Under the pieces are notes generated by a model. It was not told the origin of the DNA, made no database searches, and saw only the letters and a list, made by a program, of their open reading frames with translations. The position numbers were made by a program, and so were the translations under genes. DNA of 64,000 bases, from the sequence record NC_028894.1. One strand, 5' to 3'. Source of the stretch: Escherichia phage vB_EcoM_VR20. This document shows, in pieces, positions 9,854-50,165 of this stretch (position 1 is the stretch's first letter; every line of letters starts with the position of its first letter).

Positions 9854-11134
9854 ATGGCAAAGATTAACAAATTACTGCGCGAGTCAACTACCACTACCAG
9901 CAACTCCTTGGGCCGCCCGAATCTTGTTGCTTTGACCCGTGCTACAACCAAATTGATTTACCGCGATATCATCGCTGAACAACGTACTAACCAGCCAGTT
10001 GCGGCTCTGTACGGTGTTAAATATCTTACTCCTGATAATGAATTCAGTTTCCAGACTGGTGCTACTTATGGTGGTGAAGTTGGTTCAAAAGACCGTACAA
10101 CTATTCCGGAATTTACAACCCCAACTCAGGCCGTAGCTAAAGGTGGATACATTAAATTCCAGAATATCGTTTATAAAGCTCTGGTTGATAATCCATTTGC
10201 ATCGACCACAGAAACAGTATTATCTGATGTTCTACAGGAAGGTCTTGTTGCATTAACTATTCGTTTAGTTCCTGATGCTGCACACACCGAAAAATTTGAA
10301 GCTGGTGATGTTGAAATTAGTAACGCTGTATTCCAGGTTAATAAATGGAATGCTCCTGTTAAATCCCGTAAATTGAAAACTGCATTAACTGTTGAGCTTG
10401 CTCAGGATATGGAAGCAAATGGCTTTAATGCTCCTGCGTTCCTGGAAGACCTGCTTGCTACTATTATGGCAGATGAAATTAACAAGGATGTTCTTCAGTC
10501 TCTTATTACCGTTTCCAAGCGTTATAAAGTAACTGGCGTTTCTGACAATGGCACCATCGATTTAACATATGATGCAGCTCCAGAAGGTGCACGTAAACTG
10601 TACGAACTGGTTTGCGAAATGAACTCCGAAATTCAGAAAACTACATCTTATTCCGGTACCTTTGTTGTTGCCTCCAGCCGTGTTGCTGCTATGTTGGCTG
10701 GTTCTGGCTGGCTGAAGCATAAACCTGAAGACGAACAGTGGCTTCCTGAAACAGCGTACGGTTATTTGATTAATGGTCTTCCTGTATTCTGTGATGTTAA
10801 CAGTCCATTGGATTATGTAACCGTTGGCGTTAAAGAAAATTACGGTGGAAACGAAGTCGTAGGCTCAATCTTCTATGCTCCTTATACCGAAGGCCTGGAC
10901 TTAGATGATGAAGAACACGTAGGTGCGTTTAAGGTCATTGTGGACCCAGACAGCTTGCAGCCATCTATCTCCCTGATGGTTCGATATGCGCTTTCAGCTA
11001 ACCCTTACACCGTTGCTAAAGACGACAAAGAAGCTCGTATTATCGATGCAACTAATATGGATTTAATGGCCGGCCAGAGCAATATGTCTTATCTGCTCGG
11101 TGTTAAACTTCCGCCAATCATTTATGAGGCGTAA
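9854..11134 (+). CDS. 24: capsid vertex protein
   Basis: 426 aa; N-terminus MAKINKLLRESTTT matches T4 gp24 as recalled. Confidence 0.95.
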   Translation: MAKINKLLRESTTTTSNSLGRPNLVALTRATTKLIYRDIIAEQRTNQPVAALYGVKYLTPDNEFSFQTGATYGGEVGSKDRTTIPEFTTPTQAVAKGGYIKFQNIVYKALVDNPFASTTETVLSDVLQEGLVALTIRLVPDAAHTEKFEAGDVEISNAVFQVNKWNAPVKSRKLKTALTVELAQDMEANGFNAPAFLEDLLATIMADEINKDVLQSLITVSKRYKVTGVSDNGTIDLTYDAAPEGARKLYELVCEMNSEIQKTTSYSGTFVVASSRVAAMLAGSGWLKHKPEDEQWLPETAYGYLINGLPVFCDVNSPLDYVTVGVKENYGGNEVVGSIFYAPYTEGLDLDDEEHVGAFKVIVDPDSLQPSISLMVRYALSANPYTVAKDDKEARIIDATNMDLMAGQSNMSYLLGVKLPPIIYEA

Positions 11135-12418
11135 ATGCAAAAGATTAACGCACTAATTCACGAATCAACATTAACGGCGGCCAACCAGGTCGCCCGTCCT
11201 AATTTGCTTTCTTATACTCAGGCCACGAATAAACGAATTTTTAAAGCACTCGTGGCCGAACAGAAAACTACTCAGCCAGTTGCAGCGTTGTATGGTGTTC
11301 GTGTTCTGAACCCAGATGATAAAATGACATATCTTGGTGGAGCAACGTTTGCGGGTCAAATTGGTATGTTCGAGCGTAAGAATATTCCAGAATTTACAAA
11401 CAAAGACGAAGCTTATGCAGTCGGCGATATGTTCCAGTTTGAAAGTGTTGTGTTCAAAGTTTTGGAAGCATCACCATTCGCCGGGACTCTTGAAACTGAT
11501 TTGGGTGAAGTTATTTCTGAAGCCATTGCTGCTGGCCATATAAGAATGATGTCGGATGCGGCTTTCACTGATAAATTTGAACAAGGTCATCCTGAAATTG
11601 CTGAAGCCGGTTTCCGTATTGATAAATGGCAGACCGAAGTCAAATCCAGAAAGCTGAAAACTTCTTTAACGGTCGAGCTTGCACAGGACCTGGAAGCAAA
11701 CGGTTTCGATGCAACAGACTTCATTGATAATATTCTCGGTATTCAGATGGCAGAGGAAATTAATAAGGATGTACTGCAATCCCTTATTACTGTCAGTTCT
11801 CGCTTCAAGGTGCAAGGTGTTTCTGAAAAAGGTGTATTGAATCTAACTGACCCGAAATATGATAACGCTCAGGACCGTGCGCGAACCCTGTATTATTATA
11901 TGTGTGAAATGAACTCCGCAGTTCAACGTCAGACTTCGTTTGCTGGTACATATGCAGTCGCTTCTTCCCGGTGTGCAGCTATTTTAGCAGCTTCTGGTTG
12001 GGTTGAGAAAAAGGAAGACCAGGATGAATTAGCCTATGGCGTTCTGAAGAACGGTTTACCACTTTATGCAGATATGAATAGTCCATGTGATTATGTTATT
12101 GTTGGTGTAAATGCTGATATGGGTGAAGGTCAGACGGTCGCATCTTTGTATTATGCGCCTTATACGGAAGGACTTAGTGAAGTTGATGATGAGGGTGATA
12201 CCTCGGTCGGGGAATTCAAGGTTATTGTTGACCCTGAAAGCTTGCAGCCTACTGTTGCGCTATTAGCTCGTTATGCATTGACAGCGAACCCTTATACGGT
12301 TGCGAAAGATGATAAAGAAGCTCGCATTATTGATGGTGCTGATATGGATAAGATGGCCAACCAAAGCCAATTGAGTTCTTATCTTGGTGTTAAACTTCCA
12401 CCACTGGAAAAAGAATAA
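11135..12418 (+). CDS. second capsid vertex protein, tandem paralog of gene 24
   Basis: 427 aa; clearly homologous to the upstream gp24 over its whole length; starts right after the gene 24 stop with GAGG upstream. Confidence 0.9.
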   Translation: MQKINALIHESTLTAANQVARPNLLSYTQATNKRIFKALVAEQKTTQPVAALYGVRVLNPDDKMTYLGGATFAGQIGMFERKNIPEFTNKDEAYAVGDMFQFESVVFKVLEASPFAGTLETDLGEVISEAIAAGHIRMMSDAAFTDKFEQGHPEIAEAGFRIDKWQTEVKSRKLKTSLTVELAQDLEANGFDATDFIDNILGIQMAEEINKDVLQSLITVSSRFKVQGVSEKGVLNLTDPKYDNAQDRARTLYYYMCEMNSAVQRQTSFAGTYAVASSRCAAILAASGWVEKKEDQDELAYGVLKNGLPLYADMNSPCDYVIVGVNADMGEGQTVASLYYAPYTEGLSEVDDEGDTSVGEFKVIVDPESLQPTVALLARYALTANPYTVAKDDKEARIIDGADMDKMANQSQLSSYLGVKLPPLEKE

Positions 12419-38621: not shown

Positions 38622-38625
<4 letters not shown>

Positions 38626-39104
38626 ACACCAAGCTCCTTATAAAGTTCTTCGCGACAGGTTTTAAGGATTTTACCAGTTTCATAAGCTGCACTTTCAGAA
38701 ACATCACCAAGTGCAGCGGCAGATTGCATTTGTCCATGGCGTTTAGCTGCATATTCAAAACTTTTTACTAGCTCACGAATACGTTCTTTTTCATTGTATT
38801 CTTCAATGAATTCAGGGTATTCCCAAACTGGGCGCATCATACGATACCAATGCTGAATAGTAATATAATTACTTCCATCCAGATTAATAATTTGCGAAGG
38901 CTTAATAGCGCCCGGAGCATAAAAAGTTACCTGTCTTACTACATCAATACCGTCCACAATAGCCCAAGCAAAATCGAAAGTTGCCTTCTTTTCAATTGGT
39001 GTACTTGCACAGGACCCTAATTTTAAGAGCTTTTGTAATGCAGGGGATTTAACACCTGAAATGTATTCAGGATTAGCCACAAAACTGTTATCGCGTAATG
39101 ACAT
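38622..39104 (-). CDS. hypothetical protein, 160 aa
   Basis: Start MSLRDNSF preceded by GAGGAAAATATT and an early promoter. Confidence 0.55.
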
Positions 39105-39140
39105 AATATTTTCCTCAAATATTTTATAATCCGTGGGAGC

Positions 39141-39169
39141 ATTATACTCTGCTCCCATGAGTTTGTACA
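39141..39169 (-). promoter_or_regulatory. early promoter with -10 TATAAT in the loop of hairpin GGGAGC...GCTCCC
   Basis: Minus strand TGTACA-N17-TATAAT. Confidence 0.45.
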
Positions 39170-39273
39170 CTACTTTCCAAAAAGACCCTGAACACATAAA
39201 GTGGCCGCAATTCCAAAACAAAAACAGAATGCACCAAATCTAACAATATCCCAACCAAGGCTACAGGTCTCTA

Positions 39274-39564: not shown

Positions 39565-39914
39565 TTGGTGAGCTCCTGGAAGTCCTGGGCGAACTTATCA
39601 AAAGACTGATTAATCTGTTTTTCAACTAATTTAGGCTTCGCTGCCACAACCTTAGTACGTTTTGCATCTGCGCGAAGTTTATCATTTTCCTTCTGCAGGT
39701 GTTCAACATATTCCTGGCGCTGTTGGTCAAGGAGATTAATTTGATTAACCTGGTCTTTTATTGATTGCAGATTTTTCGCATTATCTTCTGCGACTTTGGT
39801 GACTTCCGCCACCGCTGTCTTGAGATTATCCACTTTTGCTTTTAGATAGAAACCACTACCAGCAGTTACTACCAGGGCGAGCATAAGCCCTGCGGTGAGA
39901 TTACTTATTTGCAT
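39561..39914 (-). CDS. inner-membrane spanin (pseT.3 position)
   Basis: N-terminal transmembrane segment then coiled-coil-like sequence; 117 aa. Confidence 0.75.
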   Translation of the reverse strand: MQISNLTAGLMLALVVTAGSGFYLKAKVDNLKTAVAEVTKVAEDNAKNLQSIKDQVNQINLLDQQRQEYVEHLQKENDKLRADAKRTKVVAAKPKLVEKQINQSFDKFAQDFQELTK

Positions 39915-40408
39915 AACTTGATGATTACCTCAACAATATCATCCTGGGATAAACCATTCAGGAGGATGTGATTTGTACTGTCAGATGCTGAAATGCGGAA
40001 CTGATTACCAACTTCATCCGCCATATCATCCTGGGTTAATACTGGGTGTTTAATTCCCAGGCGGTGCTGAAGTGTCAGGGGTTCAACCACAACATAACAA
40101 ACACATCCATTGATATGCACATTAGGTTGGGTCTGATTGATGAACACTTCTGCATCATATTTAACCAAATGGTTCTTTAAGAAGTCAACCATTTCAGGAA
40201 CAGATTCATGCAGCGCTTCTTTCCGCTCTTCTGATTTTTTATCACGATATTCTTTTTGTTTCGCCTTCAACTTTTTATTGGAGGCGAGTTTTTTCCGCAA
40301 GTCAGTCATGAGACCAATTTTCTTGGTCCCTTTATAGACATAAATTCCGTCATGACGGTCACCATATTCATTGACAATCATTTCATTTGAAATCAGTTGC
40401 ATATCCAT
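39905..40408 (-). CDS. alc: Alc, transcription terminator on cytosine-containing DNA
   Basis: 167 aa from MDMQLISNEM, the T4 Alc length and position; track ORF extends upstream from a GTG. Confidence 0.85.
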   Translation of the reverse strand: MDMQLISNEMIVNEYGDRHDGIYVYKGTKKIGLMTDLRKKLASNKKLKAKQKEYRDKKSEERKEALHESVPEMVDFLKNHLVKYDAEVFINQTQPNVHINGCVCYVVVEPLTLQHRLGIKHPVLTQDDMADEVGNQFRISASDSTNHILLNGLSQDDIVEVIIKLCK

Positions 40409-40421
40409 AATATTTTCCTCA

Positions 40422-40655
40422 TTAGTAGCGGTTGTAACCCCGGGGGCCAAAAGAGTTGGCACCCAGACGTTCATCTTTCTTTTTGGCTCTTGCTCTAAAC
40501 CCAGAATCACCTGTTTGAGCTTTCAGTTCTTTTAACAATTTGGCCTTCAGGTCAGTAATGAAACCAATCCGGCGGTCTCCCTTGTAGACATAGATTCCAT
40601 CATTTCTGTCGCCATATGCCTTTGTAACTCTGTCATTTGAAATTAAGTTTAACAT
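40422..40655 (-). CDS. Alc N-terminal-domain paralog, 77 aa
   Basis: MLNLISNDRVTKAYGDRNDGIYVYKGDRRIGFITDLKAKL is clearly homologous to the Alc N-terminus; GAGGA and early promoter upstream. Confidence 0.6.
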   Translation of the reverse strand: MLNLISNDRVTKAYGDRNDGIYVYKGDRRIGFITDLKAKLLKELKAQTGDSGFRARAKKKDERLGANSFGPRGYNRY

Positions 40656-40685
40656 GTTTTGGTCCTCATCAGTAGTTGATGGAAC

Positions 40686-40716
40686 CATTATGTATAGAAA
40701 GAAGGGGCTTGTACAC
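40686..40716 (-). promoter_or_regulatory. early promoter GTGTAC-N18-CATAAT overlapping the rnlA terminator
   Basis: Minus strand GTGTACAAGCCCC...CATAATGGTTCC. Confidence 0.5.
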
Positions 40717-48684: not shown

Positions 48685-48715
48685 CATTATGTCATAGCCC
48701 CATTTGGTTGTACAC
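48685..48715 (-). promoter_or_regulatory. early promoter GTGTAC-N18-CATAAT with leader CCATACTGAGTTAAC
   Basis: Near-duplicate of the cassette at 33027..33057. Confidence 0.55.
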
Positions 48716-48721
48716 TACTTT

Positions 48722-48976
48722 TTAAATTTTATCAAGCCATTTTCCAAGTTTAGTCATTTCCTTGGTGGCCTTTTCCATACTTCTGAACTTAACTAATAAA
48801 GGATGAACATCCATACCCATCACCAGATTGGTTGCAAGACTATGTTCACCAACAAGCCATAATGAGTATGTTTGAACATCCAAACCATAATTTCTGTCTT
48901 TATGCAAACGCACACCCATCACTTCAAATTGCTCACTCGCCTTTTCTACTGCATCCAGGAAATCATCTTTAGTCAT
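48722..48976 (-). CDS. hypothetical protein, 84 aa
   Basis: Start MTKDD preceded by GAGGT. Confidence 0.55.
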   Translation of the reverse strand: MTKDDFLDAVEKASEQFEVMGVRLHKDRNYGLDVQTYSLWLVGEHSLATNLVMGMDVHPLLVKFRSMEKATKEMTKLGKWLDKI

Positions 48977-48977
48977 A

Positions 48978-49346
48978 TTAGACCTCAAAAGTTGCTTTAA
49001 TCAGTGCAATGACTTCTGCGGCATTTTTGTGATTGACTTGCACATGAATGGTTTGGGTATCAACATCAGGAGCATCACTATCAACTTCCAGGAAGTGACA
49101 GAATTCCCATTCAGCGAGTTCAAAGTACTCATCAGCGTCACACATACTATTCAGGATGGTACCATCTTTCATTTCAACTTTTTCAACAAAATAATCACCT
49201 TCAATATAACACATATCCAGGATTTTGAAGGAATTGCCGTGTTGTTCCATCAACTTGACCATGCACGAATTATCATCAGGACTACCAGCGATGAATTGTT
49301 TTTTAGCAGCAGGGTCTAATACGTAAAATTTACCAGTTTCCATCAT
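48978..49346 (-). CDS. hypothetical protein, 122 aa, small-protein paralog family
   Basis: Start MMETGKFY preceded by GAGGAA; homologous to the 49695..50058 gene. Confidence 0.6.
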   Translation of the reverse strand: MMETGKFYVLDPAAKKQFIAGSPDDNSCMVKLMEQHGNSFKILDMCYIEGDYFVEKVEMKDGTILNSMCDADEYFELAEWEFCHFLEVDSDAPDVDTQTIHVQVNHKNAAEVIALIKATFEV

Positions 49347-49377
49347 TTTAATTTCCTCATTTTTGTTGAGGGAACAT

Positions 49378-49405
49378 ATTATCATGTTCCCGTTGGTTTG
49401 TATAC
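49378..49405 (-). promoter_or_regulatory. early promoter with -10 GATAAT in the loop of hairpin GGGAACAT...ATGTTCCC
   Basis: 8-bp perfect inverted repeat around the -10. Confidence 0.45.
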
Positions 49406-49632
49406 TAAGCTTGAATCAAGCCCATATAAAATTCAGCGTCTTCCGGGTGCATCCCTTCGCAATATTCATTTTGCATAAAGCGAGTAAGGTCTTCAAGAGG
49501 ACCTTGAACTTCAATTTGAATACTAAAGAATTGGGTATCTTTAATGTAAGTCATACACAAAGAAGGATACCGATTACGAATAACTTCGTAAGTGTATTCA
49601 AAATCAACGATATCAATATTAACCTTAGCCAT
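49405..49632 (-). CDS. hypothetical protein, 75 aa
   Basis: ORF with GAGGAAAATAAA and early promoter upstream. Confidence 0.6.
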
Positions 49633-49661
49633 TTTATTTTCCTCATGTAGTTGATAGGTCT

Positions 49662-49692
49662 ATAATAACATAATCATAGACCCGTTGTAAAC
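49662..49692 (-). promoter_or_regulatory. early promoter (GTTTAC, -10 inside palindrome GGTCTAT...ATAGACC)
   Basis: Seen on the minus strand upstream of 49405..49632. Confidence 0.45.
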
Positions 49693-49694
49693 TG

Positions 49695-50058
49695 CTATTT
49701 GAAGGCTTTTTGTAGAAGTTCAATGATTTGGTCGACGTTATTAGCATCTACAACACAATTAATAGAAACCGCCCCTGAAGGTGTTTTTGTATAACTGGAG
49801 TATTCACGGAAGCAATAAAACTCTTCTTCACTAAGTTCAAAATAATCATCACCCATACCATCATCATTATAGATTGCACCATTAGCACAAATTATTTCGG
49901 TTACATAATCATAGCCGTCTGCACTTGATATTGATTTAACTTCAAAACCAATCACCATTTTCTTGGATGATGTCGACCATACTAGCATTCGATGAACTAA
50001 TATCAATGAAAGATTTAATACGATGTGGATTGAACTCATATTTTTTGCCAATTTCCAT
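49695..50058 (-). CDS. hypothetical early protein, paralog of 48978..49346, reading frame broken by +1 at a UUU-UGA site
   Basis: ATG with GAGGAAATAAAA at 50058 opens a 38-codon frame ending in TGA; the homologous remainder is the track ORF 49695..50051 in the +1 frame. Confidence 0.45.
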
Positions 50059-50093
50059 TTTTATTTCCTCAGTGGTTATCAGTAGTTGATGGA

Positions 50094-50135
50094 ATCATTA
50101 TGCACCGGGTCAAGGGACTTGTACACTACTTTTTG
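50094..50135 (-). promoter_or_regulatory. early promoter GTGTAC-N18-CATAAT
   Basis: Minus-strand motif upstream of the 50058 ATG. Confidence 0.5.
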
Positions 50136-50146
50136 AAAATAAAAAA

Positions 50147-50165
50147 GGGACCCGAAGGTCCCCTT
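50147..50165 (-). terminator. terminator hairpin GGGACC-CGAA-GGTCCC
   Basis: Directly downstream of gene 32. Confidence 0.65.

Follow-up and report, generated by a model that had tools for sequence, protein, structure and literature searches.

A one-base insertion private to Escherichia phage vB_EcoM_VR20 interrupts frd.2a at a site resembling the prfB frameshift signal

In the programmed +1 frameshift of the bacterial RF2 gene (prfB), a slippery YUU codon that can re-pair after a one-nucleotide slip is followed directly by an in-frame stop codon and preceded by an SD-like element, and frameshifting depends on the spacing of that element. The consensus of these sites has been described as YTT_TRA_C (PMC3711429); a C after the stop codon is almost universal, and the natural prfB sites of 21 genomes carry the variant TTTTTGA (UUU-UGA) instead of CUU-UGA (PMC12421855). 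For frame breaks at large, BLASTp-validated singleton frameshifts have been classed as sequencing errors or recent indels, a conserved motif is required before a frameshift is called programmed, and programmed transcriptional realignment has been reported at runs of at least 8 nt (PMC3711429). The gene considered here belongs to the family of T4 frd.2, the product of which is of some current interest as a predicted LSm/SH3-like early protein flagged by a CRISPRi-ART screen that placed T4 frd.2 among the fitness genes (PMC11879866). The barrel domain of T4 Frd.2 corresponds to residues 1-88, and amber mutants of T4 frd.2 form plaques equally well whether or not the host carries a suppressor (PMC12152347).

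In this work we analyze the frd.2a locus of Escherichia phage vB_EcoM_VR20 within a window of 64,000 nt from sequence record NC_028894.1. A previous sequence-only reading had noted that this gene breaks into the +1 frame at a prfB-like UUU-UGA site, and had left the choice between a regulated frameshift and a pseudogene or sequencing indel in the T-run. We show that the frame break consists of a single added T (TTT to TTTT) that is private to VR20. Our results make it very probable that this is a non-programmed one-base insertion, either a recent mutation or an error in the record, and that no selected recoding signal is involved.

The interrupted frd.2a locus and its family

VR20 is a T4-like Gaprivervirus, and over the 20-kb block surrounding frd.2a its identity is ~94.7% with both Shigella phage SP18 and Escherichia phage CJ20. 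The gene order is 32, frd.2a, frd.3, frd.2b, with the intact paralog frd.2b lying 350 nt downstream of frd.2a; the features of the locus are collected in Table 1. As the sequence-only reading had described, the ATG at 50058 has a ribosome-binding site (GAGG, 50070..50067, 8 nt upstream) and opens a 38-codon frame encoding MEIGKKYEFNPHRIKSFIDISSSNASMVDIIQENGDWF, which ends at the TGA in GGTGAT-TGG-TTT-TGA-A. The remainder of the gene is read in the +1 frame, where skipping one base after TTT yields EVKSISSADGYDYV...QKAFK from the GAA codon through to the TAG stop. The ORF deposited at this position, VR20_252, enters the +1 frame at a later ATG, and its residues 1-4 (MVIG) are the native ENGDW region translated out of frame.

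Table 1. Features of the frd.2a locus in the VR20 window
Feature	Coordinates	Strand	Description and basis
frd.2a, frame-0 piece	49942..50058	-	ATG 50058..50056 to TGA 49944..49942, 38 codons; sequence, ORF, homology
frd.2a, +1-frame piece	49695..49943	-	GAA 49943..49941 to TAG 49697..49695, 82 native codons (EVKSISS...QKAFK)
TTTT run with private one-base insertion	49944..49947	-	Ortholog alignments and 4T/3T probes
SD-like GGTGAT (Gly-Asp codons)	49951..49956	-	3 nt upstream of TTT codon; site context in 11 genomes, duplex energies
VR20 frd.2a break-site stretch			GAAAATGGTGATTGGTTTTGAAGTTAAA; order GGTGAT 49956..49951, TGG 49950..49948, TTT 49947..49945, TGA 49944..49942, A 49941
Tryptic junction peptide of would-be trans-frame Frd.2a			SFIDISSSNASMVDIIQENGDWFEVK
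Deposited ORF VR20_252	49695..49958	-	87 aa, MVIGFEVKS...; exact match AIZ02310.1 / YP_009207431.1
Promoter-like TGTACA-N17-CATAAT	50097..50125	-	Upstream of frd.2a; 9/12 consensus matches
Intrinsic terminator hairpin 3' of gene 32	50144..50165	-	9-bp stem, 4-nt loop, T-run
frd.2b, intact paralog (FRD2 family, 122 aa)	48978..49346	-	ORF, homology; name from SP18 annotation

The gene 32 transcript is set apart from frd.2a by a terminator hairpin, and the promoter-like element lies downstream of this hairpin. The promoter that had been proposed ahead of frd.2a is plausible as a candidate from a consensus scan (9 of 12 positions), but promoter-like matches around the gene show no enrichment, with 6 found against 5.8 expected from shuffled sequences. 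The leaders directly upstream of the frd.2a and frd.3 starts are similar (...ATCAACTAC...GAGGAAA(A)TAAAATG), and the frd.2b leader has only the GAGGAAAT-TAAAATG part in common with them. Gene content between gene 32 and frd.1 varies across the genus in a mosaic manner (49405..49632, minus strand, and the whole 48700..50130 block): this slot holds frd.2a-frd.3-frd.2b in VR20, in CJ20 and in several other phages, frd.2a-frd.2b with no intervening frd.3 in SP18, an unrelated 85-aa ORF replacing frd.2a in VR25, and no gene in VR7.

Joining the two pieces of frd.2a across the break yields a 120-aa trans-frame fusion that aligns end to end with the paralog frd.2b (31% identity, E = 4e-15), upholding the homology suggested by the sequence-only reading. 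The fusion also matches the Pfam family FRD2 (PF03197) over residues 26-120 (E = 5e-35; 120.4 bits, with a cut-off of 29) and phrog_622 over residues 1-120 (E = 6e-41), so the homology spans the break far beyond chance. The conserved N-terminal MEIGKKYE...GGWFEVK block of the family is encoded in VR20, but it is split between frames at F38/E39, and frd.2a departs from the family norm of one uninterrupted ORF of ~120-130 codons.

Uniqueness and age of the inserted T

To place the break among relatives, orthologs were aligned from SP18, CJ20, UPEC01, RZ, P896, 212, P8, DK-13, MN01 and TH22 (363-nt genes) and from T4 (frd.2, 387 nt). The 363-nt CDS is annotated in UPEC01, RZ, P896, 212, P8, DK-13 and MN01; the TH22 record is unannotated, and the 363-nt frame extracted from it translates intact. 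All 11 orthologs read TGG-TTT-GAA in a single frame, whereas VR20 reads TGG-TTTT-GAA. A 47-nt probe specific for the four-T allele, in which each flank is too short to seed megablast unless TTTT is present, matched none of the 50,697 records of a phage collection, which shows in addition that VR20 itself is absent from it; a 46-nt TTT control matched 135 records. Exact-pattern scans likewise recovered no TTTT allele in IMG/VR (against one match for TTT) or in JGI metagenomes (against 12). Two of these 12 control matches are true orthologs encoding Frd.2, and the other 10 correspond to an unrelated freshwater repeat element.

This element, of ~70 nt (ATGACATTTCCTCAATGAAATATTCCAGAAAATCCAACATTTGGTTTGAAGTTAAATCAATATCGCCCAC), is conserved among contigs from freshwater-lake metagenomes (L017-L025 and L028; e.g. 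L017:85-219, L025:11277-11642), where it was matched by a 23-nt TTT control probe. Two or three copies are often arranged in tandem at intervals of 112-115 nt, and a hairpin with a T-run follows most of them. The element resembles a small RNA or leader present in multiple copies in a freshwater organism; tblastn with Frd.2 gave no match on the contigs that carry it.

Searches at the protein level agree with the nucleotide probes. A tblastn search with the fused Frd.2a matched 870 phage records, all with at least 80% query coverage, and the match was a single contiguous piece in each of 60 rows sampled evenly down the ranking. In a collection of 15 billion proteins the 87-aa ORF is confined to a single contig, that of VR20 (170,336 nt), and its cluster mates measure 120-128 aa. 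Twenty of 22 homologous Frd.2 protein clusters fall between 119 and 130 aa; the two short ones are represented by a 67-aa fragment on an 897-nt contig and a 90-aa ORF in a T4 assembly. The 67-aa fragment departs from the FRD2 family over its last few residues only, at a position other than that of the VR20 break, and is possibly cut by the contig end. The 90-aa ORF (T4583L_241, Escherichia phage T4 assembly) starts with an out-of-frame N-terminus (MLVWSASFKKMAVG), continues with LKL, misses an E and has a shifted C-terminus; it constitutes an independent indel-damaged frd.2 annotation, with sites that differ from that of VR20. A recurrent hotspot at the frd.2a T-run was rejected on these grounds, since both short members change at other positions.

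The coding sequence of VR20 frd.2a carries three private substitutions, two of them downstream of the break, and all three are synonymous third-position changes in the ancestral frame; once the extra T is removed, the protein has no private amino-acid change. An old pseudogene is thus rejected, and the break is either very recent or not real. To assess the quality of the assembly, indels with a length that is not a multiple of three were mapped onto the SP18 CDS table over ~60 kb of alignment. Within well-aligned coding sequence, no isolated indel other than the frd.2a insertion breaks a reading frame, which rejects a generally error-ridden VR20 assembly and marks the break as a one-off, not a general trait of the genome or its assembly. 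The remaining indels of this type are compensated pairs in diverged gp24 and gp37 segments, or sit at a mosaic boundary: the 2-nt indel called at 39121, at the edge of a blastn HSP, looks like a mosaic junction and not a frameshift.

Several further features of the window were observed in comparison with SP18. On the plus strand, the one gp24 gene of SP18, encoding the head vertex protein, has two counterparts in tandem (9854..11134 and 11135..12418), ORFs of 426 and 427 aa that each align to it, the second with ~86% nucleotide identity, so VR20 has a tandem gp24 paralog absent from SP18. In the alc region (39905..40510 and 40422..40688, minus strand; L006 6072..6822), a full-length alc ORF is followed by a second, short ORF, as with alca and alcb in SP18; the SP18 counterpart of the short ORF is annotated as similar to the Alc N-terminus, and the short ORF may be a partial duplication. 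At 38622..39221 (minus strand), the place of SP18 gp237, which is homologous to JS98 gp217, is taken by a different ORF of ~160-199 aa, depending on the start used.

Loss of the gene is tolerated among relatives. VR7 has no frd.2a and VR25 carries an unrelated ORF in its slot, T4 amber mutants plate normally, and the paralog frd.2b is intact in VR20, all of which establishes frd.2a as dispensable; given the CRISPRi-ART result for T4 frd.2, its loss might nonetheless not be neutral. With an insertion that is private, lies in a T3-to-T4 homopolymer and is accompanied by no accumulated decay, frd.2a falls among singleton frameshifts of the recent-indel or error type. Sequencing errors by the Illumina and Sanger methods are uncommon at a 4-nt homopolymer, and this, together with the lack of any other coding indel in the window, weakens the case for an artefact. 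Because the run is short, mutation is no less likely than error and, since the assembly is also otherwise clean, we lean slightly towards a genuine recent mutation over a miscalled base or misassembly in the deposited sequence, the two being close to evenly balanced. A genuine mutation would represent a very recent loss of function in a dispensable, duplicated gene. Ribosomes would then mostly terminate after 38 codons, any 87-aa product would come from reinitiation, and frd.2b would remain intact.

The prfB-like site and the competing explanations

The elements on which the sequence-only reading had based its prfB analogy are all present. The slippery codon is followed directly by an in-frame UGA (UGG-UUU-UGA), tRNA-Phe can re-pair perfectly from UUU to UUU after a +1 slip, and the site conforms to the consensus as far as YTT_TRA; the base after the stop is an A, so the C of that consensus is missing. 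Between the SD-like GGUGAU and the slippery codon lie 3 nt, and 6 nt separate the hexamer from the stop, which is the RF2-type spacing. Its predicted duplex with the 3' tail of 16S rRNA has an energy of -8.1 kcal/mol as a 9-mer, or -9.7 with the next U, compared to -10.7 for E. coli prfB, but it pairs ~3-4 nt further 5' on the anti-SD tail than the AGGGGG of prfB. An equally strong upstream element is found at ~1% of codons in the long ORFs of the window, and we regard its strength at this site as a modest coincidence, noticed post hoc.

The origin of each element can be traced in the orthologs. In the 11-genome site context, GGTGAT is common only to VR20 and SP18, in which the gene is intact, and eight relatives carry GGCGGT and one GGTGGT. 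With GGCGGT, the form found in CJ20 and T4, the predicted anti-SD pairing drops to about -6 kcal/mol. Judged by this context, the SD-like hexamer predates the break and is not conserved. The ortholog codon after the T-run is GAA, so TTT-TGA-A arises automatically when a T is added; because GGTGAT is ancestral Gly-Asp coding sequence and the stop is created by the added T, the RF2-like layout is a by-product of the place of insertion. Two observations speak against this by-product reading: the local context resembles an RF2 site more closely than would be expected of a random insertion, and substitutions that are exclusively synonymous are also expected if frd.2a continues to be translated in the +1 frame.

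These observations bear on three explanations that assign the break a role in expression. A programmed, regulated prfB-type frameshift, evolved to set the dosage of Frd.2a, draws on the layout of SD-like element, 3-nt spacer, slippery Phe codon and in-frame UGA, but the comparison with related phages proposed in the sequence-only reading speaks against it. The relatives examined have single-frame genes with no conserved slippery or stop context: the break is found in none of the 135 probe-matched relatives and in none of the 60 records sampled from the 870 matched by tblastn. The stop follows mechanically from the insertion, the SD-like element is older than the break and unconserved, the 3' C is missing, and the autoregulatory logic of RF2 has no counterpart in a product that belongs to the FRD2 family, with an SH3/LSm-like barrel, and is no release factor. 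We therefore consider regulated frameshifting extremely improbable, and the alternative offered alongside it, a pseudogene or sequencing indel in the T-run, is the one that the private T supports. Slippage could also occur at a real insertion without having been selected, with a useful fraction of ribosomes still making full-length Frd.2a (...GDWF-EVKS...) and softening or neutralizing the mutation. Such fortuitous slippage is favored by the perfect re-pairing of tRNA-Phe on UUU, the use of UUU-UGA in prfB sites (PMC12421855), the fit to YTT_TRA (PMC3711429), the position and duplex energy of GGUGAU, and private substitutions that are all synonymous when the +1 frame is read. The A after the stop argues against it, as does the more 5' register of GGUGAU, in which P/E-site strain may differ; the TTTT allele is neither conserved nor independently found in phage records, IMG/VR or JGI metagenomes, and ongoing selection cannot be demonstrated from as few as three substitutions. 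On balance, we deem this outcome unlikely. Slippage during transcription was rejected, as a T-run of only 4 nt is far below the 8 nt or more at which realignment is reported.

The break could instead have split frd.2a into two products, a 38-aa peptide and, through reinitiation at ATG 49958, a functional 87-aa protein. This ATG is located 14 nt ahead of the stop codon, so that the frame it opens overlaps the last part of the preceding ORF, an arrangement compatible with coupling, and the 87-aa ORF is the one deposited; no SD precedes it, however, in the upstream sequence CCAAGAAA. The structural evidence also weighs against a functional short protein. An AlphaFold2 model of the 120-aa ortholog (mean pLDDT 87, about 94 over residues 1-60) predicts an SH3/LSm-like beta-barrel in which beta1 (6-9), alpha1 (11-20) and alpha2 (23-33) precede the break and beta2 (37-46) crosses it, and the barrel of T4 Frd.2 takes up residues 1-88 (PMC12152347). 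The break itself falls within the conserved GGWFEVK motif, and 10 of the 22 invariant columns of the family alignment lie within the first 38 residues. The 87-aa product would therefore be missing these 10 positions together with beta1, alpha1 and alpha2, elements of one domain that is modelled with confidence (pLDDT 94 over residues 1-40), and no family member of similar length is a clean N-terminal truncation. According to the model, the 38-aa peptide and the 87-aa product would each be without half of the barrel, could not form the domain and should be non-functional; given also that ATG 49958 has no SD, a functional split gene is highly improbable. A non-programmed insertion hence remains the explanation that we favor for the frd.2a break.

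Implications and comparison with known systems

The most immediate consequence concerns annotation: VR20_252 is best read as a frameshifted frd.2a, whether pseudogene or sequence error, rather than as a short protein in its own right, and the site should be kept off lists of phage recoding signals. More generally, an RF2-like layout can come wholly from one added base and ordinary codons and, because a single insertion can build it, conservation and not layout must be the test of programmed frameshifting. Provided that the insertion is real, the 26-nt cassette would offer a cheap natural test in E. coli of the extent of +1 shifting at UUU-UGA-A with GGUGAU, and the natural knockout of one frd.2 paralog in VR20 could inform on Frd.2. 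Should fortuitous, RF2-sensitive slippage take place at the site, it would offer a snapshot of a recoding site at birth, before selection.

The non-programmed insertion can be set against three described systems. Like the members of the GeneTack singleton class, the frd.2a break occurs in one genome, with both halves mapping to one family, an indel in a homopolymer and no conserved motif; it differs from that class in the cleanness of the remaining VR20 assembly and in a short homopolymer of 4 nt. With respect to T4 frd.2, the VR20 gene occupies the same place downstream of gene 32, adjoining frd.3 and frd.1, and the fused Frd.2a is 78% identical to T4 Frd.2 and 99% identical to SP18 Frd.2a, but in VR20 a single added T breaks the reading frame after codon 38. 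Whereas T4 has a single frd.2, VR20 has a second, intact paralog, frd.2b, as does SP18, where the two genes are annotated as frd.2a and frd.2b.

The resemblance to prfB comprises a UGA after a re-pairing YUU codon and a hexamer complementary to the anti-SD at the same spacing, in a UUU-UGA form that also exists among natural prfB sites. The frd.2a site differs from prfB in being unconserved among orthologs, in having A in place of C 3' of the stop, and in a GGUGAU that pairs in another 16S register than AGGGGG. Its product is no release factor and thus closes no feedback loop, and all the elements of the VR20 site are accounted for by ancestral coding sequence and one inserted T.
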